The position numbers and the translations under genes were made by a program. The notes under the pieces are model-generated. The model ran no database searches, had not been told where the DNA came from, and was given only the letters and a program-made list of their open reading frames with translations. A stretch of DNA of 64,000 nucleotides from a bacterium (lineage in GTDB: Bacteria > Vulcanimicrobiota > Xenobia > Xenobiales > Xenobiaceae). The DNA is taken from assembly GCA_017458675.1 (NCBI GenBank), contig JAFTAM010000016.1, positions 15 through 64,014 on the forward strand, given 5' to 3'. This document shows positions 17,763 through 54,720 of the stretch, one piece after another (the first letter of the stretch is position 1; each line of letters starts with the position of its first letter).

Positions 17763-19010
17763 ATGTCTTTTGCTGCAAGCAGTGATCTGCATAAAAAAAA
17801 CAGCATCACCCGCTGGGATTTATTTGCCTGTGTCGCCGGACGTCCGGAGGGCATAGCTTTAACCAGGCTGGCTCACGTACTCCATGTGGAAAGAGAACGG
17901 TCCCTGATTGTTCCCCTGGGCGAGCTGGAGGACGAAGAGCTTATCGTCTGCGACAGCAGAGATCACTATATACTAAGCAGCAAAGAGGCAGCAAAGAAAC
18001 TGCGCTATACGATAGCTTACGCGCTGGCTTACGACTACGACTACAACGCCTACTTCAGCGAAGACATGGTGGCCTTCCTGAAAAAAGCCTACCGCAGCGA
18101 TCATTTCAGCACCGGCGATGTTTCCGAAAAGCTTATGAAGCCGGAGCTTATCACCAGGCTGGTTCATAACGACCTGCTTTTAATTTATAAATACGAACCT
18201 TTTACTGGACGTATAGTTGAAAATCCGTTTTTAGACGGCTTATGCGACTATCTGAAAATTAAGCGCGCCAAAGCCTTTTTCTTCCGCAAAAAGATCTCCA
18301 TGGGGAGCGTTTTGGAGGGGCGCAGGGAACAGCTCGACAGCAGCGACAGTCAGAACCTCTCCGCCGCCCGTAAATTTTTCTCCGGCCGCAATTTTAAAAA
18401 TGTCAACTGGGGGTTAACAGATAACGGAAAGTATATCAAGGAGAGCGTCGAGCGCGAGGATTCGGAGTTATTTGACCCCGAATCGAGCGCTTGCTTCCAG
18501 AAGGCCTGGAACGCAATGCAGGCCAACGTCAGCCGCTCGTCCAAGCTGAGCGTAGACGCTATAAAGCTTTACCATAAGCTGACCATGGCCAACACCGATA
18601 TCCCCAGCACTTATCGCGACCATGACGTAATGATCGGCAACAACCCCAATTTTAAAGCAGCCGTACCTTCGGAAATTCCCTATAAGCTGTCGAACCTGGT
18701 AAATTATCTGGCCGCTGCCAGCCCCTCGGACTTTGAATCGGTTCTGGACGTCTGCGCCTACGCCTACAATGAGTTCATCCATATTCATCCCTTCTCCGAC
18801 GGCAACAGCCGCACCGCCAGAATAGTCCTGGCCCATATCCTCAATCTCTTCCATATGCCGTTTGAAAAGATCCCTCACAGCTTCGAGGTGAGGTTCTTAA
18901 TCGTTACCAAGGGTTTAAAAACCAGAGACGACAACGAACTGAAGTATGTTTTGGAAGAGATATATTTAAACTGCATGAACCGCCTGGAGTTGGAAAAGGT
19001 GATGGGCTGA
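17763..19010 (+). CDS. Fic/DOC family protein with slightly degenerate Fic motif (HPFSDGNSRTAR)
   Basis: Fic core HPFxDGNxR at residues ~340-350; 415 aa. Confidence 0.85.
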   Translation: MSFAASSDLHKKNSITRWDLFACVAGRPEGIALTRLAHVLHVERERSLIVPLGELEDEELIVCDSRDHYILSSKEAAKKLRYTIAYALAYDYDYNAYFSEDMVAFLKKAYRSDHFSTGDVSEKLMKPELITRLVHNDLLLIYKYEPFTGRIVENPFLDGLCDYLKIKRAKAFFFRKKISMGSVLEGRREQLDSSDSQNLSAARKFFSGRNFKNVNWGLTDNGKYIKESVEREDSELFDPESSACFQKAWNAMQANVSRSSKLSVDAIKLYHKLTMANTDIPSTYRDHDVMIGNNPNFKAAVPSEIPYKLSNLVNYLAAASPSDFESVLDVCAYAYNEFIHIHPFSDGNSRTARIVLAHILNLFHMPFEKIPHSFEVRFLIVTKGLKTRDDNELKYVLEEIYLNCMNRLELEKVMG

Positions 19011-19107: not shown

Positions 19108-19390
19108 CTGTCAGCGCAAATGCAATGTCGGTAAGTTAAGCAAAAACAAGCTTTTAGCATACATTCTTAATAAAGGTTTTCTTTGACGCGTACGCGGAGA
19201 TTCGAGCGTAAGCGAGCGCGGAGCGGTAGCGACAAAGAAAACCGGCATAGCGAAAACATGCAGAACATGATCTAAAGATTCTTCGCTGCGCTCAGAATGA
19301 CAGAGGAAACATTTACAAGCCTAATGCAGAAATGCTATTGTGCCATTTTTAGCAAGTTATTGCCTTAACTTTATGACATTGGCGCAAAGG
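19108..19390. repeat. Copy A of dispersed intergenic repeat (core ~19127-19303, 177 bp, termini tgtcgg...gaatgacag) plus ~85 bp extension shared with copy B
   Basis: ~85% identity by eye with 22607-22875; core matches revcomp of 28238-28415 and partial copies at 1-140 and 6528-6590. Confidence 0.6.
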
Positions 19391-21410: not shown

Positions 21411-22232
21411 TTACTCCGACTGCAATTCATCGACGCGCACAAAGCTGAAGCCGCGCTCTCTGAGCTTTTCAATAATGACCGGCAGAGCCAAAACCGTCTG
21501 CGTACGGTCTCCGCCGCCGTCGTGCAGAAGCACGATATCGCCGTACTGGGCGTCATTGACTACCCGCTCGATAATGACCTCTTCTCCGGGGAGCTGCCAG
21601 TCGCGGGGCCAGTTAGACCAGAGCACTACCTGCTGTCCCAGGCTGTAGGCCTGGCGCAGGGTCCAGGGATAACGCATTCCGTAAGGAGGGCGGATAAAGC
21701 GGCAGGGCTCGCCGGAAACGCGGCTCACCGCCTCAATGCCGCGGCGTATCTGATCCAGCGATTCAGCCGGGGTACAAGCCATGAGATTTTTGTGGGAAAA
21801 GCTGTGGCTGCCCAGCAGGTGGCCTTCAGCTTTAATTCTGCAGATAAGCTCCGGATAAAGCAGAGCGTTTTCGCCCACGCAGAAAAAAGTGGCCTTAATA
21901 TTTTCCCGAGCCAAAATATCCAGAATTTTCGGAGTATTGTCGGGATGAGGGCCGTCGTCGAAGGTAAAGGCAAATTTCGGCTCGCTGCGGCTTCCGTGCG
22001 AAATAACTGGACCGTATAAGGAGGAGCGGAAATTGACGCAGGGCTCCAGCGCCGCCCCCAAAGCCAGACAAGCCGCATATCCGCCGCCCAAGAGCTTCAA
22101 GGTTCTAAATTTTGAAGGCAGCAGAGACCAAAGGCCCAAGGCTATGGCGCCCGTTCCCAAAACATAAGCCGTATGATAGTTTTCATGAACCCAATTGCGG
22201 AGCTTGTCATAACCGAAATCCATACTTTGCAT
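21411..22232 (-). CDS. Polysaccharide deacetylase (NodB homology domain) family protein, membrane-anchored
   Basis: NodB motif FTFDDGPHPDNTPKILDIL...ATFFCVG; N-terminal TM helices. Confidence 0.85.
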   Translation of the reverse strand: MQSMDFGYDKLRNWVHENYHTAYVLGTGAIALGLWSLLPSKFRTLKLLGGGYAACLALGAALEPCVNFRSSLYGPVISHGSRSEPKFAFTFDDGPHPDNTPKILDILARENIKATFFCVGENALLYPELICRIKAEGHLLGSHSFSHKNLMACTPAESLDQIRRGIEAVSRVSGEPCRFIRPPYGMRYPWTLRQAYSLGQQVVLWSNWPRDWQLPGEEVIIERVVNDAQYGDIVLLHDGGGDRTQTVLALPVIIEKLRERGFSFVRVDELQSE

Positions 22233-22471
22233 CCTTCCGTTTCCCGTTCGTCACTTTTGAAAATTAAACCAGCCCTTACATATCTCCGCACAATAGCCGT
22301 ACAGACAGAGAAAGCGCCGAGTCAATGGCTATTATACAAAAATACGCGCAAAAAATACAGGCAGAGCAGCCAATCTAAGCTGCCTTCAGCCTGTTTTGCA
22401 GAAATAATCGGGACGCCAAAAATGCGCTGCAGCTTTAAGCTCCGCTGAAGGCGCGGTCATCATACGCCTCA

Positions 22472-22875
22472 CTGCCGGCAAATTAAGCAAAAACAGCTTT
22501 AAGCATACACGCTTTACACAGGTTCTGTTCTGCACAGGAGCGAGCGTCTTAGCTAAATGCAGCCGCGGAACGAAGCGCAGAACAAAATCGACATAACAAA
22601 AAACTACTGTCGGTAAGTAAAGGAAAAACAAGCTTTTTGCGTACATGCTTAATAAAGGTTTTCTTTGACGCGTACGCGGAGATTCGAGCACAGCTTCGCG
22701 CGGAGCGGCAGCGACAAGAAAACCGGCATAGCGAAACAAGCAGAACATGATTGATAGATTCTTCGCAGCGCTCCCTGCGGCAGGAGAAGCGTTTACAAGC
22801 ATAATGCAGAGATGCTGCCGTGCCATATTCGGCGAAAGACAGTCTTAACTTAAGAATATTGTCATACGCCGCTGC
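22472..22875. repeat. Tandem pair of intergenic repeat elements (copy C 22472-22606, copy B 22607-22875)
   Basis: ctgccggcaaattaagcaaaaacagcttt and ctgtcggtaagtaaaggaaaaacaagcttttt both resemble the copy A 5' end; B is ~85% identical to A over ~260 bp. Confidence 0.6.
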
Positions 22876-22968
22876 GCCCATGTTAATCCTGAGCGCTCGT
22901 ATTATGAGCAGGAGAAAATACCGACCTGCCCCGCTGACCGTCAAACGAAGGCAATGATATAAACCGGC

Positions 22969-23955
22969 TCAGGAAGAGCAACCCTTCCAAAGGCGCCGAT
23001 AAAGCTGACGGTGCGGCGGGGCCAGCTCTGCCAAAACCCGATTTTCAGCCTGAAAGCGGGCCAGAGCATATCTGTCCATACAGAGCTCTCTTTCTCTCCC
23101 TGTATCGGTCCCGCTTTCCGCTGTAAGACGCGCCTCGGCGGCATGGGCAAAATCCTCCTGGCATATCCGTCCGCTGCGGACTCCGAAATAGAATTGAGAA
23201 AAATCTGTTTCATTGAGCGGCGAAGCGTATTTATAGCCTCTGCCCACGTACATGGGAGCCGCTCTGAGGCCGCAGTCCAGCTGAGCGTCCAGAAGCTCGT
23301 ACCAGACCGCAAGGCTTTGCATATCGACGCTGCAGCCGCCCCGCTGCAGCAAATAGAAGCGTTCAAGATATTCAATTCTCTTCCATAGAGCCAAAGCCTG
23401 ACTGCGGCAGCACTGAGGACTCTGAAAATAGCGGTAGGCCTTCTCAGTTACCGTGAGGCGCAGACCTGACGCCCTGTCGGCAGGAACGCTTATCAGCCCT
23501 TTCCGCTGCAGCCAGGCGGAAGCCTCGGCGCATAAATTGCCGATTTTCGCTTTAAATAACCGATTATACATACCTTCAGCCATATTTCTGAGCTTCTGCA
23601 GCGTCAGGAAATAGATAATTTTATTGACGACATATGAGATTCTGCACGGCTTAAGGATGCAGAAATCAATATGCTGAAATTTGTGTTTCAGTTCGCCCGG
23701 AGACGTGGAAGCCGTCAAAACTAAGTTCCTGCGCCGAGGATATTTTCGGCCGCTTTCCTCCAGCAGCCGCAGCTGCGAAAGTCCCCTGCAGGCTAAATCC
23801 CATAAAACCAGAGTGTAGCTTTTTTGAAAAAGATGCTTTTTTAAGGACGCTGAATCGCAGCCGGAAACGGCCGCGCGCACTCCCCTGCCTTGCAGAGCTC
23901 TGCAGAGCATAGAGTTAAAAAGTTCATCTTCGCTGAACAGACATACTGAAAACAT
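22969..23955 (-). CDS. Hypothetical protein with N-terminal receiver(REC)-like domain and uncharacterised C-terminal domain
   Basis: REC-like landmarks SED (acidic pocket), LVLWD (phospho-Asp position), VLTAS (Thr), ILKP (Lys); no known output domain recognised. Confidence 0.5.
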   Translation of the reverse strand: MFSVCLFSEDELFNSMLCRALQGRGVRAAVSGCDSASLKKHLFQKSYTLVLWDLACRGLSQLRLLEESGRKYPRRRNLVLTASTSPGELKHKFQHIDFCILKPCRISYVVNKIIYFLTLQKLRNMAEGMYNRLFKAKIGNLCAEASAWLQRKGLISVPADRASGLRLTVTEKAYRYFQSPQCCRSQALALWKRIEYLERFYLLQRGGCSVDMQSLAVWYELLDAQLDCGLRAAPMYVGRGYKYASPLNETDFSQFYFGVRSGRICQEDFAHAAEARLTAESGTDTGRERELCMDRYALARFQAENRVLAELAPPHRQLYRRLWKGCSS

Positions 23956-23985
23956 ACCCCTCCTAATAGAGGCCCGTACAGGCCT

Positions 23986-25014
23986 CTATCCGATATTGTT
24001 TATACAACTGTATAAAGGCAGAAAAAGTCCCAGCAGAACCAGACCGATAAAACCGCCCATAACCGTGAGTATCGCCGGTTCCAGACAACTGTAGAGGCTG
24101 TCTATGCTGCAGCGGCTCTGCTCGTTATAGACCTTTGACAAATTTTTCAGCATAGCCTCCAAACTGCTGCTTTCAGAGGCTACCCGCATCGCCGCGATAA
24201 ATTTTACGGAAAAATATCCGGAAAGCTGCATGGCCTCAGGCAGATCGCCGCCTTCCTTCAGCTCCGCCGCCGTCTCCTCCAGGGCCTGCGCCAATGGGTA
24301 ATTGGCCAGGGACATGCCGGTTAAATGCAGAGCCGAGACCAAAGAGAGACCGCTTTTTACCATCAGAGCCAACACCCGGCAGAAGCGCGCCATTACAACC
24401 GCTTTAGCCAGATTGCCTATTACCGGCAGAGTCAAAACGTATTTCTGCAGAGTCCAGACAGACTGCGGAGTCATAAAATAGAATTTAACGCTTATCAGCA
24501 GAACCGCAGAGCAGACAAAAAGCAGCTTTATAAACCAGCCGCTGCGCAGCAGGGATACCGCCGCGATCAGCAGCTTAGTCAAAATCGGCAATTCCTGAGA
24601 AGAAGACTCAAAAATCGGCACAAACGCCGGAAAGACATGAGTTACGGTTAAAATCATCAGAGACAGCATCGCCAGAATCAGAATAATCGGATACTGCAGA
24701 GCCGCTTTCAGACGGCGCTTTAAGTTCAGCTCAAACTCATACAAATCGCCCAGATGGATAAGCAGCTCGGCCAAAGAACACGAGCTCTCCCCGGCCTGCA
24801 TAATTCCTATTTCCAAAAGAGAAAAATCTTCCGGCCAGGCGCTGCAGGCCTGCGAAAGCACGCTTCCTTCAGAAACCGCTCGGCCGACTTCAATCCAAAC
24901 CCGCTTCCTTCTGGATGAAACGCACATCTCAGCCGCAGCCTCTAAAGCTCTGACGATAGGAACGCCTGAATTGAGCATAACTCCCAGTTGACGGTACAAA
25001 AATACACGCTCCAT
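23986..25014 (-). CDS. Type II secretion / type IV pilus platform protein, GspF/PilC family (two T2SSF domains)
   Basis: Polytopic membrane protein with duplicated T2SSF-like segments. Start placed at internal Met (MERVFLYRQLGV) to avoid a 124-bp overlap with the upstream gene; six-frame ORF extends to 25140. Confidence 0.7.
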   Translation of the reverse strand: MERVFLYRQLGVMLNSGVPIVRALEAAAEMCVSSRRKRVWIEVGRAVSEGSVLSQACSAWPEDFSLLEIGIMQAGESSCSLAELLIHLGDLYEFELNLKRRLKAALQYPIILILAMLSLMILTVTHVFPAFVPIFESSSQELPILTKLLIAAVSLLRSGWFIKLLFVCSAVLLISVKFYFMTPQSVWTLQKYVLTLPVIGNLAKAVVMARFCRVLALMVKSGLSLVSALHLTGMSLANYPLAQALEETAAELKEGGDLPEAMQLSGYFSVKFIAAMRVASESSSLEAMLKNLSKVYNEQSRCSIDSLYSCLEPAILTVMGGFIGLVLLGLFLPLYSCINNIG

Positions 25015-25016
25015 AC

Positions 25017-26303
25017 CTACCTCCAATCCAGCTCGGAAAGGCAAGCCGCGCTCAGCGTTCCGTCCGCTTTGGGAACGGCCAGCCAAAGGCCGCCGGCAAC
25101 CGTATTGATATACAGCCTGCTGTTGCAGGGATCGACACAAAGTCCTCCGGGCGCAGCCTTTCTCAGCTTCTCGGGAAGCTTTAATCTCTGCCAGACCGGC
25201 TTAACCGAAACGCCGTTATCTTTGTAAATTACACAGTATAAATAGCTGCTGTCAACGGTATAAATTACCGAGCCCCAGCCGTTGACCGCCACGGCTCTCA
25301 GAATTCCGCAGTCCTTGTAGGGACAGACTATTTTTTCTCCCCAATAGCCGCAGGGTCCGAATTTTTCATAGCTGCCGCCGGGGGGAGCTCCGCCCCAGTA
25401 AGCGGCGCGCAGACGGCGCTCCCGGCCTTCGCACAGCCATAACGTACTGCCGTATTGATCGCAGGCGATGCTGGTGAGATCAGCCAAGGGTTCGGATTTG
25501 CATGTAAAAAAGGTACTGTCTGTCCAGAATGCGATTTTGTTGTCGCGGGAATCGTCTAATACCCACAGGGCTCGGTTGGCTTTATCGGCGCAGAAGACGA
25601 AATTGCCCTCCTTATCGGCGGCTATGCCTGCAAAAACAGGACTATAGCCGTTTTTAGGCTGCGGACATTTATATTTGAAGATCATTTTAAATTTGCCGAT
25701 ATCGCTCAGAATTAACTTGGCCAGATAGCCGCGGCCGCCGTCGGCCAGCCACATTAAACCGGTTCCCGGATGGCCCGCCATAGCCGAGGTGTGCCAGTTC
25801 TCGTCAAAAATTACGCTTTTGAAGCTTAGCAAGCCGTCATACCAATAATTGCGGGCCTGCCAGGTTAAAGGGCCTCCGTCGGCAAAATCTACCTCGCTGT
25901 CATAACAATGCAGGCTCACAGGAGCGCTGCGATCCACGGGACAGAGTTTCCTCAGCGAGCATTTGGGAGAATTCGGCGCCCAGGCTGAAACGGTCAGCAG
26001 ACAGAAATCCTCGGAAAAAGGCTGTCGCTCCGCCCGCCATTTATAAGACGAATATACGCCTTTTCCGAAGCCCTCCTGACTGCCGCCCAAGAGTTTTTCC
26101 GCTCCGAATTGCCATTCCTCCATCTTTTCCTGAGCCAAAAAGGCCGCCGTCGTCGCTTCTTTAGTGGTTCGCGCCGCCCTGGTTCCGAAGGCATACAGAC
26201 TGAACAGATGGGCGCAGGCTATAAACAACAGAGCAAATGCAATAATCAGCTCAAGCAGAGAATAGCCTCTCAGACCTACACGGCAACTGCACATTTTATT
26301 CAT
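25017..26303 (-). CDS. Prepilin-type N-terminal cleavage/methylation domain protein (pseudopilin-like, 428 aa) with large C-terminal beta-rich domain
   Basis: Class III signal peptide GLRG-YSLLELIIAFALLFIA with Glu at +5 after the predicted cleavage Gly. Confidence 0.7.
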   Translation of the reverse strand: MNKMCSCRVGLRGYSLLELIIAFALLFIACAHLFSLYAFGTRAARTTKEATTAAFLAQEKMEEWQFGAEKLLGGSQEGFGKGVYSSYKWRAERQPFSEDFCLLTVSAWAPNSPKCSLRKLCPVDRSAPVSLHCYDSEVDFADGGPLTWQARNYWYDGLLSFKSVIFDENWHTSAMAGHPGTGLMWLADGGRGYLAKLILSDIGKFKMIFKYKCPQPKNGYSPVFAGIAADKEGNFVFCADKANRALWVLDDSRDNKIAFWTDSTFFTCKSEPLADLTSIACDQYGSTLWLCEGRERRLRAAYWGGAPPGGSYEKFGPCGYWGEKIVCPYKDCGILRAVAVNGWGSVIYTVDSSYLYCVIYKDNGVSVKPVWQRLKLPEKLRKAAPGGLCVDPCNSRLYINTVAGGLWLAVPKADGTLSAACLSELDWR

Positions 26304-27027
26304 CCCCCTTTACCTGCACCTGCGTGCGCAGTATAACGCCTCCGTCATTGCCGCGGCTTTGACCGCCCTTCAGACTGAAAGCGGCAGAAGCGCCCCGCAA
26401 TTCCAAATCCACATAGAGCCTGCCGCCTCTGGCCATTCGATTCAAAGACGAAATGCCGATATAACTGATATTCCGGCTCAGCAGCCTTTCGGAAGCGACG
26501 CAGTCTTTTCGGTTGAGAGAAGAAGCGCTGGCCTTAAAGCCGGATTTATAAACAACCCTATAAAGACATTTATCTCTGCAGTTCCATTTCAATCCGATTA
26601 CCTGAGGATTTTTGCCATCTGCCGCCCGCCGCTGATAGACAAAATTAAAATTGCTGTCAGGCCTGCTGGCAAAAGAGCAGCCCTCTCCCCATTTCTGAGC
26701 CGTAACCGAAGCGGGCCACAGCACCTTGCCGCACCAGCGCAGCTCACGGCTGAGACGGTCGGCGGCCGAAGCCAAATCGCGAAATTGCTGCGTATCAGAC
26801 ACGCTTTCATTGTTAGTGCGCACCGAAGCGGAGGTCAGCTCTCCCACCAAGCCGGTTATCATTAAAAAAAGGCTGCAGACAATTAAAATCTCAGGAAGGG
26901 TATGGCCTGCAGAATTACGTCCCGACGCAGACAGCAATGCTCTGCGCCCGCAGAATTCTGCAGCTGAACCTCTCAGAATGTTACGGCATAAAATCGTCCT
27001 GATATATTCCATAATCCCACCCCTCAT
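26296..27027 (-). CDS. Prepilin-type N-terminal cleavage/methylation domain protein (pseudopilin-like)
   Basis: SAG-HTLPEILIVCSLFLMITGLV with Glu+5; true start probably an internal non-ATG codon (ORF leader too long). Confidence 0.6.
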   Translation of the reverse strand: MRGGIMEYIRTILCRNILRGSAAEFCGRRALLSASGRNSAGHTLPEILIVCSLFLMITGLVGELTSASVRTNNESVSDTQQFRDLASAADRLSRELRWCGKVLWPASVTAQKWGEGCSFASRPDSNFNFVYQRRAADGKNPQVIGLKWNCRDKCLYRVVYKSGFKASASSLNRKDCVASERLLSRNISYIGISSLNRMARGGRLYVDLELRGASAAFSLKGGQSRGNDGGVILRTQVQVKGDE

Positions 27028-27616
27028 TATTGTCGGCCAACAGGCTTCTCACTATGCAGGAATCGCCCTTAACGCTGCTCAAGGTATTGGGCAGCATGCC
27101 TCTAATCTCGATCTGTCCGTTTCTGTTCTTCAAAATCTCAAAGCAGCCGCTGCCATGCTCAGGCACATAAACTCTGGCCCAAATCCGGCTTCCGTCTTTA
27201 CCTCTTTCGGGCGTCGCCAAAGAGTTGCCGGCGGCCCCCGTCAAAGCGGCCAAATTATCGCATGAACCGTAAAAACGAAGGAAGCTTTCTCCCGATTCAG
27301 CCAGGTACCAGGCCTGCATATCGCGCTCCAAGACTCCGTAAAAGCGCCTGTCGGTATGCAGAAGCAGCAGATAAGACGCGCAGACGGTAAACATAACGGT
27401 TATCATCAGCATGGACATAACCAGCATGCCGCCTCTGATGCCGCGGCCGCGCAGGCGGAAAGAAAAGAACGAAGCTGCGCTTCTTCGGCGCGATTGAAAA
27501 TTAAATAATTCTTCTTTAAGAGGCAGTAAAAAATCGGCTCTATTAAAATCCGAATACAAATATGCTGAAAACATATCCCCCCCCAAATAATAAAAATGTA
27601 TTTTTTTCTTTTCCAT
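26981..27616 (-). CDS. Putative minor pseudopilin, GspK-like (hydrophobic N-terminal helix without Glu+5)
   Basis: RGIRGG-MLVMSMLMITVMFTV; position in pseudopilin cluster; true start probably internal. Confidence 0.35.
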   Translation of the reverse strand: MEKKKIHFYYLGGDMFSAYLYSDFNRADFLLPLKEELFNFQSRRRSAASFFSFRLRGRGIRGGMLVMSMLMITVMFTVCASYLLLLHTDRRFYGVLERDMQAWYLAESGESFLRFYGSCDNLAALTGAAGNSLATPERGKDGSRIWARVYVPEHGSGCFEILKNRNGQIEIRGMLPNTLSSVKGDSCIVRSLLADNNEGWDYGIYQDDFMP

Positions 27617-27655
27617 CTGCAGCCCCGATCCTTTTTTGCAGAAATATTTTTTTTG

Positions 27656-28066
27656 TCAGGCGCCTTTGAGAGAGGAAGGAAAACTCCAGCTGATATGAAG
27701 CCGGTCGGATAGGTCCACCAGAGCTTTAATGCGCCGCCGCCACAGCTCCTCGGCCAGATCCAGCGATTCCCTGGCCATACGCAGATATGCTGAACCGCCT
27801 CGGGCGGCGATCCATTTATTCATGCAGCTCAGCAGAGTCTGCAGCGAATCGGCTTCCTTGCGGTAAACGCCCCTCAAAGTCTTTTCCACCTGCGCCCTGC
27901 GGGTGCGTCCGGAAACCTGAGCATACAAACAGTCAAATTCTCTCTGCAGCGACTGACAGCGCTGCTCTATCTCCTCGCTTATGCTCCCCCAGCGCCGGGA
28001 AAGTTCCAAAGGAGTAATTCTTTTGCAGACGGCTTTCTGCAGTAAAACAGGCAAACAGTTAAGCAT
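27656..28066 (-). CDS. Hypothetical protein (136 aa, Arg/Glu-rich, helical)
   Basis: ORF only; first gene of the apparent minus-strand pseudopilin operon. Confidence 0.35.
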   Translation of the reverse strand: MLNCLPVLLQKAVCKRITPLELSRRWGSISEEIEQRCQSLQREFDCLYAQVSGRTRRAQVEKTLRGVYRKEADSLQTLLSCMNKWIAARGGSAYLRMARESLDLAEELWRRRIKALVDLSDRLHISWSFPSSLKGA

Positions 28067-28237
28067 AACGCACCCCCGTATATTCCGAAACGGATAAAGT
28101 TTATGCTCAATAAATAGCAGCTCGTCTGGAAATTATTTAGAAAAATACTGCTCGGCTGACCGATGTCGTTAAGTTAAGAATAAATTTAGCTGAAAATGCG
28201 CGGCAAAATATCTGCGCTATGCTTGCAAACGTTTGAC

Positions 28238-28415
28238 CTGTCATTGAAAGCGCAGCAAAGAATCTTTCAAACATAGTCCGCATGTTAACGATATGTCGGT
28301 TTTCTTTTGCACTTCACTCCGCGGCTGCATCCGGATCGGACGCTCGCTCTTGAGCAGAACAAAACCTGCGTAAAACAGATTTGCTTAAAGATGCTTTTGC
28401 ATAACTTGCCGACAG
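28238..28415. repeat. Complete 178-bp copy of the intergenic repeat element in inverted orientation, termini CTGTCATTG...CCGACAG
   Basis: Reverse complement matches the copy A core and the window-start partial copy; terminal inverted pentamer CTGTC/GACAG. Confidence 0.6.
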
Positions 28416-28790
28416 CGCTCGGCAGACAGGTCATATTGAACGCTGAAGCGGCAGCGGCCGGCAGCGGTCTTGCATATGCTGCTTTGACTGTTTTTATGAA
28501 AGATATCTCATAACAGCCGCGTTACTGCCGCAGCGCACGGACATACCGCTGCAGCGCGGCGTTTCGGAGCTATCGGCAATACTTGCCTGCATAAACTGCA
28601 GGGCGTTTTGCCAGCGCCGGATATTATATGATTGTCCGCTCAGATTCGCCAATGCCGGAATTACAGAGCCTGACAGCCCGGCGCTGCCGGCGCCGGCCGG
28701 GAAGGGCTGAATTGCTCCGCCGAAAATCTGCAAAAAATTTTTTGTAAGCGGCAGGAAAAATCTCAGTCCGCGTATTAAATTTTATATACC

Positions 28791-31166
28791 GTGATTGAAA
28801 CAGCACACATCCTCGTTCTTGAGGACGACGCTTCACTGCGGGAATTGTTGGTGAGCGTCCTTCAAGATGAAGGTTTTGATGTGGAGGCTGCGGCCGGGGG
28901 GGAAGAAGCTGTTGAAATCGCCTCACGTAAATTACTCGATCTGGTCATTTTAGATATACGCATGGAAGGCCTCGACGGCCTGGAAGCTCTGGCTTTGATG
29001 CGCAGCAATCTGAAAGAGGCGGCGTCTCTGGTAATAACCGGATACGCCAGTGAGGAAGATTCGATACGGGCCCTCCGTCTGGGTGCAGCGGATTATCTGC
29101 ACAAGCCCTTCGAGCTCAATATTTTTCTCGATAAAGTCAGCGAGCTTCTGCAGCTCACCAAAAAGAGACGGCGAATTTCCTATGTAAATGAAAAACTGCA
29201 GACTCTGTTTTCCTATGCCCTGACAACCTTAATTTCCTCTCTCAGCGGCAGAAAGCTGCAGGAGCAAGCGGCCGCCTCGGCGGCTTCCGCCGCCCGAACA
29301 GCCCGCAGTCTGGCTGATTTAATGGGACTTGAACCGCCGGCGATCCAGCAGGCAGAATTTGAAGCGATTCTGAGAGCGCTTTATAAATTAAAGGCTATAA
29401 GCTGCCTGCCCGGAGAACCCGCCGCTTTACGGCAGTCGTTCGCTCAAAGCGCCGGCGACGAATATCAGCAAATCAGCCAGGCGGCCGAAACCGTCCTGCA
29501 GATTCTTTTCAGCTCCGAAAAAAAAACGCTGCAAAGCGGTCTTGAAGGCTGGATAGAATCTCAGTGCGGCGGCGAGACAGCCGAAGTTCTGTTTTCCGAG
29601 CGCTCTTTTAAAGACTCAAAAGGACGCCGATACCTTCCCTGCCTCGCAGAAGAGCAAAACGGCGAAGGCAGCGGAGACTCGGCCGCTCTGAGCATAGCCC
29701 TGACAATGTGGCATACCGGCCGGAAGGAAGAAGCCTGCCAAATCTTCCGCAGGCTCTCTTCATCAGAAAATATCCTTTGCAAAAGTCAGGCCTTTCTATA
29801 TTTAGGTCTCTTCGATCTGCAGAAGCAGCAGACAGACCTGGCAAAAAGCTTCTTTGACAGCGCTATGCGGCAGGCGGTCCGGCTGGGCCCCCTGGCCTTA
29901 GGCAAAAGCGCCCTCCAAATAGGCATTAGCATCGCCGGCGCAAACGATGAACTGAGTCAGAAATATCTTCGTGCCGCTTACAGCATTCTGGATAAGCTGC
30001 AAGCTGCTCCATGGAACGCCTGTGCATTCTTTGCCCTGCTTAACGCCAATCAAGCCGATCCGTCAGCCTGCTGCCTAAATCTGCAGCTTATTATCGAAAA
30101 CGGCGATAATCGGGCCGAAGCCTGTTTCCCCATACTGCTCCGCAAATTAGCTGAGCTGCTGATCTATTGGAAGGAAGCGCCTCCGACGGCTTCAGATTCC
30201 GGATACGGCCTCTTCAGCGAGCTATTGACAAAATTCTTAAAACAGAACATTGCCGCCTGCGTAAAGCTGATAAGCCAAAACCGCCTAGACTCCAAAACCT
30301 GTGCAGCCATATGCCGTTTCATTGAAACTAATCAGCAATACTTTCCCTACCATAAACTGCAGCAGCTTCCCATAACCGTGGCTTGTCCGCCGCCGCCCGG
30401 CTATTCTTTGGCCTGCAGCGAACAGCAAAAAATCTACATCGTCACCATGGGTCAAGTGCTCGTTCGGCTGGGGACGGCTCCGCCTGACAGTAAAATCTGG
30501 CTTACTTCCAAAATAAAGCAGTTATTCGTCCGTCTGGCCTGCGCCGGAGGACCAGTCTCCATTTCGCAGATTATCGAAGAATTCTGGCCCAACGCCGTCA
30601 ATAACGGACAGGCCAGTCTTTGGAAAGCCCTTTCCTCAATCCGCCGCATTTTAAAGCCGCACTGCCGTTTTGACGATCCCATTCTGCGCACGGACGACTG
30701 TCTCACCGTCAGTCCGCGTCTGATTCTGAGCAGCGACGCCGAAGAGCTCGAGCAGAATTGGAAATATTATCGGCAGAATCACCGCCTTCAGCATTTAAAG
30801 CGCATTCTGGAATTGTCCGAAGGGCCTTTTATGCCAGGCCTGGACAGCGAATGGGCCATGGGTAAAAGACAGCGCTTTAATTATCTCTGCAATGAAGCCG
30901 CCCTTAAGCTGTTTGCTCACTATCAGCAGCAGAACGACTGGTCCAGTATCCTGGAACTGAGCCATATATGTCTGCGCCAGGACCCCCTGAACGAATCGGG
31001 CTGTGAAATGCTCATGCGCGCCCATATGGCTCTCGGACAGCCCTCGCAGGCCCTGAGCTGTTACGGACACTTTAAAACCGGACTGAGACTGGCTCTGGAT
31101 ATTGAGCCCGGCAGCGCGCTCAACGCTCTTTTTAAGAAAGCGAAGGCGATGAATGAAAAGCTATAA
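28791..31166 (+). CDS. Response regulator: N-terminal REC + central winged-helix (OmpR/trans_reg_C-like) + C-terminal BTAD (SARP/AfsR-DnrI-type) domain
   Basis: REC motifs ILVLEDD...VILDIRMEG (Asp), VITGY (Thr), LHKPF (Lys); BTAD-like C-terminus (EWAMGKRQRFNYLCNEAALKLF...CLRQDPLNESGCEMLMRAHMALGQ); GTG start; translationally coupled to the downstream kinase. Confidence 0.85.
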   Translation: MIETAHILVLEDDASLRELLVSVLQDEGFDVEAAAGGEEAVEIASRKLLDLVILDIRMEGLDGLEALALMRSNLKEAASLVITGYASEEDSIRALRLGAADYLHKPFELNIFLDKVSELLQLTKKRRRISYVNEKLQTLFSYALTTLISSLSGRKLQEQAAASAASAARTARSLADLMGLEPPAIQQAEFEAILRALYKLKAISCLPGEPAALRQSFAQSAGDEYQQISQAAETVLQILFSSEKKTLQSGLEGWIESQCGGETAEVLFSERSFKDSKGRRYLPCLAEEQNGEGSGDSAALSIALTMWHTGRKEEACQIFRRLSSSENILCKSQAFLYLGLFDLQKQQTDLAKSFFDSAMRQAVRLGPLALGKSALQIGISIAGANDELSQKYLRAAYSILDKLQAAPWNACAFFALLNANQADPSACCLNLQLIIENGDNRAEACFPILLRKLAELLIYWKEAPPTASDSGYGLFSELLTKFLKQNIAACVKLISQNRLDSKTCAAICRFIETNQQYFPYHKLQQLPITVACPPPPGYSLACSEQQKIYIVTMGQVLVRLGTAPPDSKIWLTSKIKQLFVRLACAGGPVSISQIIEEFWPNAVNNGQASLWKALSSIRRILKPHCRFDDPILRTDDCLTVSPRLILSSDAEELEQNWKYYRQNHRLQHLKRILELSEGPFMPGLDSEWAMGKRQRFNYLCNEAALKLFAHYQQQNDWSSILELSHICLRQDPLNESGCEMLMRAHMALGQPSQALSCYGHFKTGLRLALDIEPGSALNALFKKAKAMNEKL

Positions 31167-33855
31167 AATATCTTTAACCGTAATTATCTGCATTGTGGGA
31201 TTTCTTTTACTGACGCAGAACCTGCAGGCCTGCCGGCCGGCCGATTATGCCGACTCCTTCCCCAAAATGCTCCTGCTGATTTTGGGAATTGCGCTGGAAA
31301 CGCACCCTATACGCTTCGTTCCGTTCGGACGCTTCAGCTGCGCCTGGGCCTGCTGGCTGGCCCTGGCTCTGGCCGTTCCCGGCAATATTCCCCTTCTCTG
31401 GGCAGTCATATTTCTATGTATGCTGACAGAGCGCCTGAGATTATATTTTTCAGCGAAACGCTCAGTTCATACCGCAGCCGCCTCCGCTGAAAACGCAGTT
31501 AAATCTGTTTTTACCGCTCCCTATCTGACGGAAACGCCTGAAAAGCAGCGGCAGGAATGCAGGCCGGCTGAAACCGCCCTGCTCCTTTCCGCCTGCAGTC
31601 TGCTGACTCTGACGGTATCTCTCTGGATTCTGGCTCAGAGCGGCTGCTCGCCGGAAACGGCGGCTGACGCAGGCCTCAATGCTCTCCGAGGGGACGTACG
31701 CTTTACCGATGCCGAGCTCTTGCCGCCGGCCGTTATCGGCCTTTATCCGCTGCTCAACACCGTTCTGCCCTTTATATTTATTCCCGGCCTAAAAGCTGCG
31801 GCAGAGCCTGAAGCGGCTATGCGCCGGCAGCGTCTCTCCGTCTGCGAGCTGAGCCTGGGCATTCTGGGGCTGGCCGCCTATAAAAGCCTGAACGGCGATT
31901 TCTGTTTATTTGTTCTGATTACGGTCGCCGTAATCAGCTGCCGCGCCTGGGGCTTTGCCGTCTTTCAGAGCGAAGACTGGCTGCGCAGCCGGCGTCTCAG
32001 CAGAAGCCTGGAGAATAAAGACAAAAAGCTGCTTGCCGTTCAGAAGGACTGCAGCGATCTATCCATACAGCTTCGCAGCGATCGTCAGGAGCGCCAGCTT
32101 GTCAATATTATCGAACAGGAACTGACCCTGAGAAATAACGGAGAGACTTTAAAGACAGCCTTAGAACTTACCGCCAAAATGGTAAATATCGAACAGGCTG
32201 CCATTTTCGGCAGCCGCAGCGGCCGTCTGGTTCCCCGCTTCTATATTAAAGAGGACGAGCTTCTCAAAAACTGGGATCTATTGGACCTTCAGGACCCTCT
32301 CCTGAATATGGCCTGCTGCCGCCGGACGGCTGTTACTCTGCAGGAATTGGCAGAATCAGATCTGCAGCTGCCGCCCGGTCCATTTGCTTATCCCTTTCAG
32401 ATAGCCGTATTTATGGCGGAAGGTTCCGTTCTTTGGCTGGCCCGCTCACATAAAGAATTCAATGACAGAGAAATACGCCTCTTAAAAGAAGCCGCCTTAA
32501 AAATCGGCCTGGCCGACCGTGAATCGCAGCATGCCGAGGATCTGCAAAAGCAGCTGCAGGAGCTGGCTCAAGCCAACGCCTATTTGTCAGCCTGGAATGA
32601 GAGAATCAACGAATTTATGGCCGGCCTTAACCGGGCGCTGGATTTGAGCGGCAGCCGGGCTGCTTTAAATGAAATTGAAAGTCTCGTCAAAACCATTATT
32701 GAAGCAGACTGCGTATGCTTCGTATTCGGCGGAGAAAACGACGGCGAAAAAGAGCAATCCGACTGCGAAAGAGAAGCGGCTCCGCCGCCTCAGCCTGTTT
32801 CAGCGGAAAGCCGCCGCTCGCTTGAGGAACTGCGCCGCTGCGTCTGCCGCAACCGACGTCCCCTGCTCATTGACGATCTCAGAGGAAGCAGATTTAAGCC
32901 TCCCCATCCTGAAATAATTTCGATCCTGGCAGTGCCCGTCATGAGCCGCTATCTGAGCGAAGAGTGCGATTCCGACGAACCTGACAAATGCCGCGCCGTA
33001 AGCGACGCCGTCATCCTGGGCGCCTGCCGAACCGACGCCTTTTCCCGACAGGATCAGGACATTATGCAGCTGCTGGCCGAACGCCTGGACGTTATATTGC
33101 GCAGCCGCCGTCTGCAAATGCAGCTGCAGAGGGCCAATCAGGATCTGAAGAAATCGCAGGCCTCCCTGATCCAGTCCGGCAAAATGGCGGCCATAGGACA
33201 GATGGCCGCAGGTCTGGCCCATGAGCTTAACACCCCTCTGGGTTCGGTAATTCTGGGCATCGATTCCGCCGCTCTCAGTCTGAAGCGTGAAAAGACGCAG
33301 ACCGCCGCCGAAAGGCTGGATACCGCCAAAAAAGCCGCTCAGCACGCGCAGAGCATCATAAAAAATCTGCTCTATTATTCGCGGGAGGAAGCTCAGAAAG
33401 ACCTCCGTCCCATCAATTTAAATCTGATCATAGACGACGCCATCGCTTTAATCGGACACAGGCTCAAAAAATGCGGCCTTACCGTCAGAAAAACTTTGGG
33501 AGAGCTCCCTCTATGCACAGTCAACCGCAGCGAAATGCAGCAGGTCTTTACCAATTTAATACTCAACAGCTGCGACGCCGTAAAGGACAGCCCCGAACCG
33601 CATATTTTGGAAATCAGCTCGCATATAGATTCAAAGGGACTCGTCGAGCTATGCTTTAAGGACAACGGCTGCGGCATAGCCCCCGACCATTTAAAGCGTA
33701 TATTTGAGCCCTTTTTCACCACCAAGGAGCCAGGCTGCGGCACGGGTCTCGGCCTCTCCGTAAGCCGGGAGATTCTCTCCAAACTGAACGGCGAGCTCCT
33801 GGCCGAATCGTGCCCCGGGAGCACCGTATTCACGGTAAAGCTGCCCTGCGGATAA
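31153..33855 (+). CDS. Sensor histidine kinase (multi-TM N-terminus, GAF-like middle region, HisKA + HATPase_c)
   Basis: H-box MAAGLAHELNTPLGSV; N/G boxes FTNLILNSCDAV, DNGCGI, GCGTGLGLSVSREIL; overlaps the RR stop by 14 nt. Confidence 0.9.
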   Translation: MKSYKISLTVIICIVGFLLLTQNLQACRPADYADSFPKMLLLILGIALETHPIRFVPFGRFSCAWACWLALALAVPGNIPLLWAVIFLCMLTERLRLYFSAKRSVHTAAASAENAVKSVFTAPYLTETPEKQRQECRPAETALLLSACSLLTLTVSLWILAQSGCSPETAADAGLNALRGDVRFTDAELLPPAVIGLYPLLNTVLPFIFIPGLKAAAEPEAAMRRQRLSVCELSLGILGLAAYKSLNGDFCLFVLITVAVISCRAWGFAVFQSEDWLRSRRLSRSLENKDKKLLAVQKDCSDLSIQLRSDRQERQLVNIIEQELTLRNNGETLKTALELTAKMVNIEQAAIFGSRSGRLVPRFYIKEDELLKNWDLLDLQDPLLNMACCRRTAVTLQELAESDLQLPPGPFAYPFQIAVFMAEGSVLWLARSHKEFNDREIRLLKEAALKIGLADRESQHAEDLQKQLQELAQANAYLSAWNERINEFMAGLNRALDLSGSRAALNEIESLVKTIIEADCVCFVFGGENDGEKEQSDCEREAAPPPQPVSAESRRSLEELRRCVCRNRRPLLIDDLRGSRFKPPHPEIISILAVPVMSRYLSEECDSDEPDKCRAVSDAVILGACRTDAFSRQDQDIMQLLAERLDVILRSRRLQMQLQRANQDLKKSQASLIQSGKMAAIGQMAAGLAHELNTPLGSVILGIDSAALSLKREKTQTAAERLDTAKKAAQHAQSIIKNLLYYSREEAQKDLRPINLNLIIDDAIALIGHRLKKCGLTVRKTLGELPLCTVNRSEMQQVFTNLILNSCDAVKDSPEPHILEISSHIDSKGLVELCFKDNGCGIAPDHLKRIFEPFFTTKEPGCGTGLGLSVSREILSKLNGELLAESCPGSTVFTVKLPCG

Positions 33856-33976: not shown

Positions 33977-34942
33977 GTGAATGACGCTATCCGCTTGCCT
34001 TTTTACGACAAACAGGAATATCTGAAAAACCTAAGGCCTATCAACGACCTTATGTTTCGCCTCTGCGCTAAATCCAAAAGCTGGTGCGAAGAGCTGCTGC
34101 GCACAGTTTTCGACGACGGTAAACTTACAGTAGAAGAAAACTGCGTTCAGTACGATTTAGCCAATCCCGGCCGCCGTTCCGTCATTCTGGACGCCAAATG
34201 CCGCTTAGGGAACGGCGATCTGGTTAATATCGAAGTTCAAACCGGCGAGCACGGCGATCATCAGAGAAGAGTACGTTTCCATTCTGCCCTGCTGACCGCC
34301 GAATCCAGCCTGCCTCAGATGGATTTTGCGGATATTCCCAATGTCTGCATAATTTATATATGCGAATTTGATATTTTCGGCTACAATAGTCCTATATATA
34401 AGGTTGACCGCGTGCTGCGCGGCTTCGGCGATGTATTGGATAACGGCTGTACGGAAATATACATAAACGCGCTGGCCAGGGACAATTCCAAAATTTCTCG
34501 GTTAATGGAGATTTTCGTAAACCGGGACGCCTATAACTTTGAAGATTTTGCCAATATTTCCACAATCAAACATTACTTTTTCAACTCTCGGAAAGGACAG
34601 GAAGAAATGGACGAAGCTCTGGAAAATTTATTTAAGGGCAGTTTAGCCCAGGTCAAAGCGGAAGCAATAGCTCAAGGTTTAGCTCAAGGCATGGCTCAAG
34701 GCATTGCTCAAGGCAAGGCTCAAGGAATTGCTGAAGGCAAGGCTCAAGGTATTGCTGAAGGTAAGGCTCAAGGTATTGCTCAAGGCAAAAAAGAAGGCAT
34801 AATATCCGTATTTATCAATCTGGTGAAGGACGGATTAATTTCTGTAGGCGAAGCCTGCAGACGCGCTGAGATATCAGAGGAAGCGTTCAAAGCTTTTATG
34901 GAAAAATACAGCCAGGAACAGGCTCAGATACAACATAACTGA
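33977..34942 (+). CDS. Rpn-family recombination-promoting nuclease / putative transposase (PD-(D/E)XK, YhgA-like) with C-terminal (AQGI/AEGK)n repeat
   Basis: N-terminal YhgA-like region (PINDLMFRLC...NIEVQTGEHGDHQRRVRFHSALL); 12-nt periodic gctcaaggxattgctcaaggc repeats encoding AQGLAQGMAQGIAQGKAQGIAEGKAQG; GTG start with GGAGGTG RBS. Confidence 0.8.
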   Translation: MNDAIRLPFYDKQEYLKNLRPINDLMFRLCAKSKSWCEELLRTVFDDGKLTVEENCVQYDLANPGRRSVILDAKCRLGNGDLVNIEVQTGEHGDHQRRVRFHSALLTAESSLPQMDFADIPNVCIIYICEFDIFGYNSPIYKVDRVLRGFGDVLDNGCTEIYINALARDNSKISRLMEIFVNRDAYNFEDFANISTIKHYFFNSRKGQEEMDEALENLFKGSLAQVKAEAIAQGLAQGMAQGIAQGKAQGIAEGKAQGIAEGKAQGIAQGKKEGIISVFINLVKDGLISVGEACRRAEISEEAFKAFMEKYSQEQAQIQHN

Positions 34943-41323: not shown

Positions 41324-41479
41324 GACTTTTTTATTTTCTAGATAAGCTCCTTGTTTCCTATTCGGCAGAGATACAACTCCCCAATTACAATATTGCGTCA
41401 AGCGCCGACTTCAACCAGGAACGAACAAATTCAATTCAGAAATAGCGAAGGAGCAAAGTTCTGCAAATATGATCTGCAA

Positions 41480-42373
41480 ATGAGGTCTTTAAATATGAAT
41501 TTCAAAAAGAGTTATATTTCTTTGTTAACCGCCGCGCTGCTCTTATCCGGCTCCATAGCCTGCGATCGGCAGCCTGCCAGATCGGACGCTCCGAAAAATA
41601 TAGTTTCCAATACCGGCTTCCAATCCGAAGGTCTGGCGGCCGAGCGCTATGAATCGGTTACGGGACTGGCGGTTTACGGCTCCGCCGGGGATATCAAAGT
41701 GCATTTGGCCGCTCTGGCCGAAAAAGCCCCGGATAATATAGACAGATTCTTTCTGCTGCTCAATTCCAAAGCCCCCAACCAGGCTATTTTAGTACAGGCG
41801 CCTGATGTAATTCCGGCTCAGGCGATAGAAAAGCAGATTAGCAGCAAAGTTACCGTAACCGGCAGCGTTAAATCGGTTAACTGTCCGGACTTGGACAGTT
41901 TCATCAGCAAAAACTTCGGCACCGATTTAGCTAAAACCGCCCAAGGCGAGTTAGCCTACATTGCTGCGGAAGCTCCCTTTGACTTTAATCTGGAGCCCGC
42001 TTCGGAAAAGAAGCAGCAGAAGGTAGAGATTTCTCTCGAAGGCACGCCTCTGGGAGCTCCCGCCAAGCCGGAGACAGAATCCGAAAAGCCGCAGCCCCCC
42101 GCCGCTGAAAATGCCGAATCCGACGGTGCGGCCGTTCCTGCGCAGACTCCCGACAAACCGGTTTCCGCCACCGAACAGATAAAAACCATAGAACCTCCGC
42201 CGGTCTCTCAGGGACACACCGTGCAGGCCAAAGCGCTCCCCAAAGCTGACGCAGGCAGCCGCCAGCCGGAAGCGCAGGCTCCGCAGGAAGCGCCTCCCGC
42301 CGAACCTGCGCCCACACCCATAGCTTCGGAAGCGGACCGTCCTTCCGATCTGCCCACTCCCGTACAGTATTAG
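41480..42373 (+). CDS. Secreted/lipoprotein-like protein with Pro/Ala/Glu-rich low-complexity C-terminus
   Basis: Signal peptide MNFKKSYISLLTAALLLSGSIAC; start moved to an internal Met to remove overlap with the divergent upstream gene. Confidence 0.5.
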   Translation: MRSLNMNFKKSYISLLTAALLLSGSIACDRQPARSDAPKNIVSNTGFQSEGLAAERYESVTGLAVYGSAGDIKVHLAALAEKAPDNIDRFFLLLNSKAPNQAILVQAPDVIPAQAIEKQISSKVTVTGSVKSVNCPDLDSFISKNFGTDLAKTAQGELAYIAAEAPFDFNLEPASEKKQQKVEISLEGTPLGAPAKPETESEKPQPPAAENAESDGAAVPAQTPDKPVSATEQIKTIEPPPVSQGHTVQAKALPKADAGSRQPEAQAPQEAPPAEPAPTPIASEADRPSDLPTPVQY

Positions 42374-51746: not shown

Positions 51747-52121
51747 TTATTCAGCTTCAGCAATATCATACGGGAATTCCGGTTCTGTTCTGAAGTCCGC
51801 TCCGAATTCAGAAAAAGCTCTGACATACTTTATTATCTCTTTCGCCTTCCCGCTTATGACAAAATCCGAACTTTGCAGCAGGGATTTTGCCTCAAGATAA
51901 TTGCACTGCCTGAGCTTAGCCAGGCACTTGATCACATTGAGCTGCGGGCGGTCCGTTTTTGGAATGGTTACCGTATAAACGGTTTTATCAGCTTTAATCG
52001 GCGAAAAATATGTTGTCGCCCAACCCCATCCACACTTAGGACAAAGCATCCCACAGGAGCCAGACTCATGATAATATTCCATCAATTCACCGCATTTTTC
52101 ACAACAAGTAGTTTCAGTCAC
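51747..52121 (-). CDS. Small zinc-ribbon protein with C-terminal domain resembling ribosomal protein L7/L12 C-terminal fold
   Basis: CxxC...CxxC (CEKCG...CPKCG); C-terminal NVIKCLAKLRQCNYLEAKSLLQSSDFVISGKAKEIIKYVRAFSEFGADF patterns like L7/L12 CTD (NVIKvvRe.tGLgLKEAKdLVe.aP.vvKegvsKeEAeeiKkkLEeaGAkV). Confidence 0.5.
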   Translation of the reverse strand: MTETTCCEKCGELMEYYHESGSCGMLCPKCGWGWATTYFSPIKADKTVYTVTIPKTDRPQLNVIKCLAKLRQCNYLEAKSLLQSSDFVISGKAKEIIKYVRAFSEFGADFRTEPEFPYDIAEAE

Positions 52122-53277: not shown

Positions 53278-53499
53278 AATAGCTCCATTCTACTTAAAAA
53301 CGCAACATAAAACCGTATCAATCAATAAAGTACACAGATTATTAATTGACAAAATAATATAAATGTGCTATTATGCAATATAGTTATATGTGTTCAATAG
53401 CACTTAACATTAAAACGCATGTTTTTACTGCGGCAACAGTTAATTCGTGCGTTTTTCTATTTTACAGGTAAAACATTGCAATTTAAGTATAGATAATAA

Positions 53500-54597: not shown

Positions 54598-54720
54598 TAT
54601 TTTATCTCCTAAATCATAGAATACTCTAATATAGAATCATTGTCAATAGTTTTTGAGCGGGATTTTCTTTTTTTTTATTTATAAAGTCAATATCAATACA
54701 TTATTGTCATAAAATATTCT

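Follow-up and report, generated by a model that had tools for sequence, protein, structure and literature searches.

A six-gene operon of Candidatus Xenobia encodes predicted minor pilins, one of them fused to a beta-propeller, and a shortened platform protein without a linked motor

Results

A tightly packed six-gene locus of the Xenobia

We analysed a stretch of 64,000 nucleotides from a bacterium of the Xenobiaceae (assembly GCA_017458675.1), hereafter the window, which makes up nearly the entire 64,026-bp contig JAFTAM010000016.1 and contains an operon of six genes (g1 to g6) related to the type IV filament machines. The six open reading frames (ORFs) are co-directional on the minus strand at 22969-28066, as described in an initial annotation made from the letters alone, and are tightly packed in operon-like spacing, neighbours being separated by 39, 2 or 30 nt or overlapping by 32 or 8 nt:

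g1, 27656..28066, minus strand: 136 aa, cytoplasmic helical orphan, the first gene of the operon
g2, 26981..27616, minus strand: ORF of 211 aa, predicted minor pilin of the PilX_N/GspK/ComGG type, without Glu+5
g3, 26296..27012, minus strand: 238 aa from the probable start at 27012 (ORF to 27027), predicted prepilin-type minor pilin with Glu+5
g4, 25017..26303, minus strand: 428 aa, predicted modular minor pilin, with a GspI/XpsI-like module and a C-terminal beta-propeller
g5, 23986..25014, minus strand: 342 aa, inner-membrane platform protein of the PilC/GspF family
g6, 22969..23955, minus strand: 328 aa, N-terminal REC domain (residues ~1-125) and orphan helical C-terminal domain

The length of g5 follows the NCBI annotation, the listed ORF of 384 aa starting at TTG being an over-extension, and the annotated start of g4 is Met4, which gives 425 aa instead of the 428 aa of the ORF.

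The relatives of the window are metagenome-assembled genomes (MAGs) from gut and rumen belonging to the class Ca. Xenobia (formerly UBP9) of the Vulcanimicrobiota/Eremiobacterota, including Ca. Bruticola. The order of the six genes is kept in 10 species-representative Xenobia genomes and in several metagenome contigs (about 11 species), and g1 is present in all Xenobia loci. For each of the six genes the pairwise ratio of nonsynonymous to synonymous substitution rates (dN/dS) is 0.03-0.16. Our literature search found nothing relevant on the biology of pili in Xenobia/UBP9; within the phylum, type IV pili are made by the cultured, diderm Vulcanimicrobium (PMC9758169).

Three predicted minor pilins, two with conserved prepilin-peptidase sites

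The sequences identify g2 (of the PilX/GspK type), g3 and g4 (of the GspI type) as predicted minor pilins, and in g3 and g4 they reveal conserved predicted prepilin-peptidase sites. The class III motif of g3 is G/HTLPE (the slash marks the predicted cleavage), in which the -1 residue (G36) and the glutamate at +5 (E41) are invariant across 10 orthologues that are 25-45% identical. In g4, whose orthologues span the same range of identity, the signal is LRG/YSLLE, the glutamate at +5 (E18) is invariant and the residue at -1 is Gly or Ala, with Ala in most orthologues. Both proteins have a single N-terminal hydrophobic segment, in agreement with a class III signal. The initial annotation had named two prepilins with Glu+5, and the conservation of both positions among the orthologues bears this out. 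N_methyl (PF07963) is matched by seven of the 10 g3 orthologues (best E 3.7e-4, under the Pfam cut-off), and the best orthologue E-values for this family are 3.7e-4 and 1.6e-3; as evidence that g3 and g4 are predicted pilins, the invariant -1 residue and Glu+5 are better than these sub-threshold scores.

Mature g3 would have about 200 residues and is possibly GspJ/PilW-like. Its profile matches the N-terminus of geopilin (E 0.01), and its other weak matches are confined to the N-terminus: Verru_Chthon protein C in eight of 10 orthologues, gspJ in one of 10 and ComGF in one of 10. The overlap of 32 nt between g2 and g3 is identical in the related locus L001. PilX_N (PF14341) is matched by nine of the 10 orthologues of g2 (best E 7.4e-7), which supports the GspK-like helix without Glu+5 proposed earlier; the window copy does not match PilX_N at an E of 1 or better and gives a weak ComGG_2 match (E 0.15, 12.8 bits vs a cut-off of 40). 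The g2 alignment conserves an RG(G/S) motif, the hydrophobic helix and the stretch ERRFSGVQERNLQAWYLAxSG, and has no glutamate at +5; the conserved core starts at RGG/MLVMSMLM, about position 27457, and the single hydrophobic segment covers residues 60-88. Profile searches of the Protein Data Bank (PDB) with g2 and g3 gave nothing significant past the pilin N-terminal helix.

The leaders of these proteins had been described as unusually long or non-canonical, a trait that for the most part reflects this one genome or the start codon chosen. The leader of g4 has an ordinary length of 10-13 aa. That of g3 has 36 aa in the window genome, owing to a 20-residue insertion specific to it, vs 16 aa in the relatives. 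For g2 the length depends largely on the choice of the start codon, which is ambiguous: the long N-terminus is poorly conserved, and the ORF of L009 permits a leader of only 12 aa.

A pilin fused to a beta-propeller

The first ~100 residues of g4 match the profiles of XpsI (E 3.5e-11), ComGE (E 6e-5; 23 bits vs a cut-off of 49) and GspI (E 2.9e-4), and the match to XpsI recurs in eight of 11 orthologues. The large C-terminal domain noted initially is a beta-propeller according to structure prediction. The AlphaFold2 model, built from 11 sequences, has a mean predicted local distance difference test (pLDDT) score of 72.6, with values of 80-94 within the propeller. In it a pilin module (residues 16-122), which has a long alpha1 helix and a sheet of four strands, is joined by a disordered, flexible linker (127-163) to the propeller (174-425). 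The top Foldseek matches in the PDB are WD40, YVTN and 6-phosphogluconolactonase propellers (E ~1e-9), and in a profile search the NHL-like blade repeat matches that of the designed propeller 'Pizza' (E 7e-4). No PilY1 structure is among the 50 Foldseek matches listed. Modular pilins are defined by an N-terminal pilin module and an extra domain of a kind not peculiar to pili, and their display at pilus tips is an established principle (PMC8179133). As modelled, g4 fits this definition exactly (Raynaud et al. 2021, PMC8179133).

A dedicated platform protein without T2SSF_N

The T2SSF profile (PF00482) matches g5 twice (E 8.6e-45; 152 bits vs a Pfam cut-off of 25.2), which confirms the GspF/PilC platform of the initial annotation at the level of the domain. 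At the level of individual systems the protein stays below the equivalog cut-offs: GspF (TIGR02120) scores 221.9 bits (E 1.7e-65; cut-off 424), XpsF 157.7 bits (cut-off 650), the PilC models 201 and 172 bits (cut-off 700) and ComGB 106 bits (cut-off 240). Apart from its orthologues, g5 is closest to PilC proteins that belong to the same phylum (Eremiobacteraceae) and are encoded beside PilT or PilB-PilT. The alignment to Eremiobacteraceae PilC (31% identity) covers only residues 74-411 of the canonical protein, and g5 therefore lacks the N-terminal ~70 residues (T2SSF_N). Three candidates for the canonical PilC/PilB of Xenobia, taken from the nearest matches of g5, were rejected: P0054 comes from an unrelated MAG with 60% GC, P0020 from Eremiobacteraceae, and P0016 has 64% GC vs 41-57% in Xenobia loci.

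Natural variants in a rumen sublineage

A rumen sublineage, represented by the independent assemblies L015 and L024, has lost g5 and g6 with no trace left of either gene, and polysaccharide deacetylase and mutL genes stand directly after g4. The three pilin genes remain under purifying selection there (dN/dS 0.07-0.10). The pilins are thus independent of a linked platform, and a pilin trio that works without one points to a machine encoded elsewhere. In the same two loci g1 and g2 are fused in frame (L015, 8577-9407; L024, 2-529), directly upstream of the RGS/ILIM site, a Rosetta-stone arrangement that hints at an action of g1 on the N-terminus of g2 in the cytoplasm. Next to the operon L015 has one more gene for a classical type IV pilin (6874-7446, minus strand; RKLLA/FSLMEVLIVIAIIAIL; N_methyl 20.9 bits, E 2.5e-4). 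It adjoins a BTAD regulator without REC, and neither the window nor the other loci contain a homologue.

The cytoplasmic proteins and the regulatory neighbours

No hydrophobic segment is found in g1 or g6. The former, whose ATG is preceded by the Shine-Dalgarno-like GGGGGTG, has no match in Pfam, NCBIfam or the PDB, including by profile search of the latter. The family profile of g6 matches response-regulator structures in the PDB across the whole REC domain (~120 residues, E 2e-7), in accordance with the receiver-like N-terminus reported at first, and on this basis g6 has a receiver domain. PF00072 is weakly matched by seven of 11 g6 orthologues, the window protein alone having no Pfam match. 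In the alignment K102-P103 is invariant and T81-A82 nearly so; the phospho-acceptor position 53 is Asp in the window genome, its close relative and L009, and Asn in most orthologues. The C-terminal ~200 residues are orphan, with only about six related cluster representatives among 1.84 billion proteins.

Two regulatory genes lie divergently upstream of g1:

Response regulator with REC and BTAD domains, 28791..31166, plus strand: Response_reg E 1.1e-24, BTAD E 1.6e-13
Sensor histidine kinase GAF-HisKA-HATPase, 31153..33855, plus strand: HisKA, HATPase_c and GAF domains

The REC-BTAD regulator is syntenic, and again divergent from g1, in L001, L009 and L010-L013, a BTAD regulator without evident REC occupies the equivalent position in L015 and probably also in L016 and L017, and we regard the REC-BTAD protein as the probable transcriptional activator of the operon. 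The GAF histidine kinase, the predicted partner of the regulator, adjoins it only in the window and L009/L018. The lineages with the adjacent kinase are those in which g6 kept its Asp, which is suggestive of a link between kinase and g6, but the independent events are very few.

A scan of 21500-29500 against Rfam gave no structured RNA at E <= 0.1. A dispersed intergenic repeat has at least four copies in the 64 kb (22472-22853, 28169-28415 inverted, 19126-19349 and 2-125; 74-88% identity) and looks like a miniature inverted-repeat transposable element or a repetitive extragenic palindromic sequence. Two inverted copies flank the operon and another lies at the start of the contig. Because of this repeat, the spacer between g1 and the regulator is 724 bp long in the window vs about 128 bp in L001. 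A mobile or invertible cassette, as suggested by a 124-nt inverted repeat around the operon, was rejected, as the repeat recurs at 19126-19349 and at the contig start. Just downstream of g6 most relatives have a convergent gene for a Zn_ribbon_TFIIB protein of 126-130 aa (E 3.7e-5; L001 13405-13797, minus strand, with equivalents in L010-L013, L016, L017 and L019), in place of which the window has a copy of the dispersed repeat.

Other features of the window

Away from the operon, the profile match of an FHIPEP/FlhA-like gene (42425-44083, plus strand) is restricted to positions 327-653, the C-terminal half that is cytoplasmic; the gene may encode the FlhA C-domain on its own or be one part of a split gene. 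It is preceded by an ORF of 340 aa without Pfam match (41351-42373, plus strand), and relatives have a similar pair of 277 and 489 aa. A low-GC island at 52000-54600 (0.32 vs about 0.52 elsewhere), with a DUF4417 gene and a Fic/DOC gene, was probably acquired horizontally; there is another Fic gene at 17763-19010. The window further encodes a bacterial alpha-2-macroglobulin of 2049 aa (253-6402, minus strand; Big_5, MG2, A2M and bMG10 domains) and a PD-(D/E)XK transposase-family protein (PDDEXK_2; 33977-34942, plus strand) with a C-terminal run of AQGxAQGIAEGK repeats.

Discussion

A probable accessory module of a filament machine encoded elsewhere

The evidence favours the hypothesis that this locus borrows parts from a machine encoded elsewhere over that of a distinct system. 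On balance we consider it probable that the operon is a regulated accessory module, i.e. a tip complex and adhesin that brings its own platform to a type IV filament machine, the motor of which is encoded at another place in the genome. Three arguments carry this view. First, the closest relatives of g5 outside its orthologues are PilC proteins encoded beside PilT or PilB-PilT, and the cultured member of the phylum is diderm and piliated. Second, that the peptidase site and Glu+5 are strictly conserved implies a prepilin peptidase and a filament partner. Third, and most informative, the sublineage of L015/L024 keeps the pilins without the platform. Of the two possibilities left by the initial annotation, borrowed components or a separate pseudopilus-based system, the former is thus the one we retain and the latter is less supported. 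If the motor is indeed encoded elsewhere, the locus is a lineage-specific variant and not a new kind of system.

From these elements we infer complex formation, a tip location for the propeller, the use of an external motor and roles for g1 and g6, in a process that would involve 1) activation of the operon by the two-component system; 2) processing of g2, g3 and g4 by a prepilin peptidase encoded elsewhere; 3) assembly of g2, g3 and g4 on g5 into a priming complex similar to GspK-J-I or PilX-W-V; 4) extension of the filament with a major pilin by the shared motor, an ATPase of the PilB type, the genes of both lying at other places; 5) exposure of the g4 propeller at the filament tip as an adhesin or ligand-binding head, in the way of PilY1 or of a grafted module; and 6) participation of g6, and perhaps g1, as cytoplasmic adaptors or regulators, which may connect the shortened g5 or the precursor of g2 either with that motor or with the signal from the kinase.

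A number of observations weigh against this interpretation. The genes of the platform and of the ATPase are usually adjacent in type IV filament systems. Here, none of the window ORFs of 150 aa or more has a T2SSE ATPase, secretin or peptidase A24 domain, tblastn searches with PilB/PilT were negative for the window and for the 10-kb flanks of the operon in all relatives, and a major pilin was not found within the 64-kb contig. The N_methyl scores of g3 and g4 from the window (14.6-15.2 bits) are under the gathering cut-off of 21.2, and the globular parts of g2 and g3 show no detectable similarity to GspK or GspJ. Finally, the roles given to g1 and g6 are purely conjectural, and the AlphaFold2 model of g6, made from two sequences, was discarded at a pLDDT of 42.

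The missing ATPase, secretin and peptidase had already been pointed out for the immediate surroundings of the genes; the observation extends to the whole contig and, for the ATPase, to the 10-kb flanks of all relatives. Since the ATPase gene is unlinked in the relatives too, the uncoupling of platform and motor genes is a conserved trait and not an accident of assembly. Among the window ORFs of that size there is also no match to T2SSG, and the window has none to PilM, PilN or PilO and no class III pilin motif besides those of g3 and g4. Accordingly, the locus does not correspond to any of the complete systems: it has neither a GspF equivalog nor GspE, GspD and GspG, as in a T2SS (type II secretion system); neither a PilC equivalog nor linked PilB/PilT and PilMNOPQ, as in a type IVa pilus (T4aP); and neither equivalogs of ComGB and ComGC-GG nor the ComGA ATPase, as in a Com pilus. 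Its building blocks are nevertheless clearly those of type IV filaments.

Relation to known systems and alternative explanations

The resemblance to the T4aP lies in the tip. Minor pilins and PilY1 form a priming and tip complex in these pili (PMC7541494; PMC8179133). The Xenobia operon likewise has a minor-pilin set with a member of the PilX_N type and a propeller protein that may sit at the tip, and the PilC proteins are the closest relatives of its platform. It differs from T4aP in that the propeller is covalently fused to a pilin, whereas PilY1 is a separate protein that is not a pilin, in its NHL-like repeat, in having only three pilins, and in the lack of linked PilMNOPQ, PilB and PilT. 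With the modular pilins PilB/PilC of Streptococcus sanguinis, g4 shares the arrangement of small pilin module, linker and bulky module; unlike them, it places a propeller on a pilin of the GspI type, a combination that is not among the frequent architectures named in the available part of that work (PMC8179133).

The strongest alternative, which we nonetheless hold to be unlikely, is a secretion pseudopilus of the T2SS kind, in which g2, g3 and g4 would form a GspK-J-I tip on g5, substrates would be pushed through a secretin and the propeller would be the head that recognises them instead of an adhesin. The operon is like the GspI-GspJ-GspK tip with GspF in having three minor (pseudo)pilins, one of them a K-type protein without Glu+5 and another, g4, recognisably GspI/XpsI-like, and a T2SSF platform in the same operon; there is no fourth pilin resembling GspH. 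Furthermore, the top curated matches are T2SS models (g5 to GspF TIGR02120, 1.7e-65; g4 to XpsI, 3.5e-11, and GspI) and the phylum is diderm. Gene clusters with a short T2SSF and T2SSJ- or T2SSK-like proteins also occur in other phyla: L021 (6774-17053) and L022 (7034-17065), from Omnitrophica and another MAG, encode a short T2SSF of 350-354 aa without T2SSF_N, in the order coiled-coil protein of 309-357 aa, T2SSF, small pilin-like protein, T2SSJ-like protein, T2SSK/LTD protein of ~1000 aa and PilN-like protein; neither the upstream 8 kb nor the listed genes downstream include one for an ATPase. The arrangement of an unlinked platform with pseudopilins is therefore not unique to Xenobia. Against a secretion pseudopilus, every T2SS model scores far under its equivalog cut-off, and GspC, D, E, G, L and M are not found in the contig. 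Neither these proteins nor GspH are linked to the operon as they are in a T2SS, the order of the genes is K-J-I-F instead of F...I-J-K, g5 lacks T2SSF_N and the GspI-like protein bears a propeller of ~250 aa. In addition, the closest relatives of g5 are annotated as PilC and adjoin PilT, a retraction ATPase typical of pili, and the PilX_N matches, like the Ala that most g4 orthologues have at -1, indicate pilins of the pilus/Com type.

It is improbable that the operon is a repurposed remnant that lost its ATPase and peptidase, its products being membrane-anchored surface or periplasmic proteins (e.g. a tethered propeller receptor signalling via g6) that form no filament. Such a remnant would be consistent with the lack of an ATPase, peptidase, secretin and major pilin in the 64 kb and of an ATPase in the 10-kb flanks of ~11 relatives, with the presence of two orphan cytoplasmic proteins and a receiver domain, and with the outright loss of the platform in one lineage. 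Yet the Gly/Ala at -1 and Glu+5, which are relevant only to cleavage by the peptidase and to filament assembly, are strictly conserved, and strong purifying selection acts on g5 in the genomes that have it. In addition, genes for type IV pili are known from the phylum, and L015 has an additional classical pilin gene.

A DNA-uptake pilus of the Com type for natural transformation, with g5 as ComGB and g2, g3 and g4 as ComGG, ComGF and ComGE, is if anything a little less probable still. In its favour, g5 has a length like that of ComGB and lacks T2SSF_N, as do other short T2SSF proteins, and there are weak matches to ComGE, ComGF, ComGG_2 and ComGB. An Ala at -1, the residue of most g4 orthologues, also occurs in Com pilins of Firmicutes. 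However, the ComGB score of 106 bits falls under the cut-off of 240 and under the scores for GspF and PilC, the matches to the ComGE, ComGF and ComGG models are likewise well under their cut-offs, the locus has no ComGA ATPase or ComGC major pilin, and ComGA, ComGC, ComEA and ComEC are all lacking from the contig. No pilin with a beta-propeller is known from Com pili.

Least probable of all, and by a long way from our preferred interpretation, Xenobia would have no T2SSE-family ATPase or prepilin peptidase whatsoever and the cassette would be a self-contained pseudopilus or tip-display system, motor-less or energised by other means, with g1 and g6 in the coupling role of the absent T2SSF_N and ATPase.

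The initial annotation had also drawn a parallel with the expanded pseudopilin repertoires of some bacteria of the Planctomycetes-Verrucomicrobia-Chlamydiae (PVC) group. The organism belongs to the Xenobia and not to that group, and the likeness is limited to weak matches to the Verru_Chthon cassette proteins B, C and D (TIGR02598, TIGR02599, TIGR02596) in eight of 10 g3 orthologues and one g4 orthologue. The one match with a listed range, that of g3 from the window, spans only the first ~58 model positions, i.e. the N-terminal helix of the pilin, the best E is 1e-4 vs cut-offs above 250 bits, and no homologue of protein A was seen.

Implications for the biology of Xenobia

The accessory module that we favour leaves the general picture of how type IV filament machines work unchanged. 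Its components add to that picture in four ways. First, the pilin of the GspI type with a beta-propeller would be a new modular pilin and the fused counterpart of a tip made of minor pilins and PilY1. Second, a dedicated, N-terminally shortened platform is encoded with no ATPase gene coupled to it. Third, there is a pseudo-receiver partner protein. Fourth, two natural variants, the loss of the platform and the in-frame fusion of g1 and g2, hint at which of the parts cooperate. The Ca. Xenobia are uncultured bacteria of gut and rumen for which there are no functional data, and in these organisms the operon would be a conserved, signal-regulated surface-filament module whose probable role is attachment in the gut.

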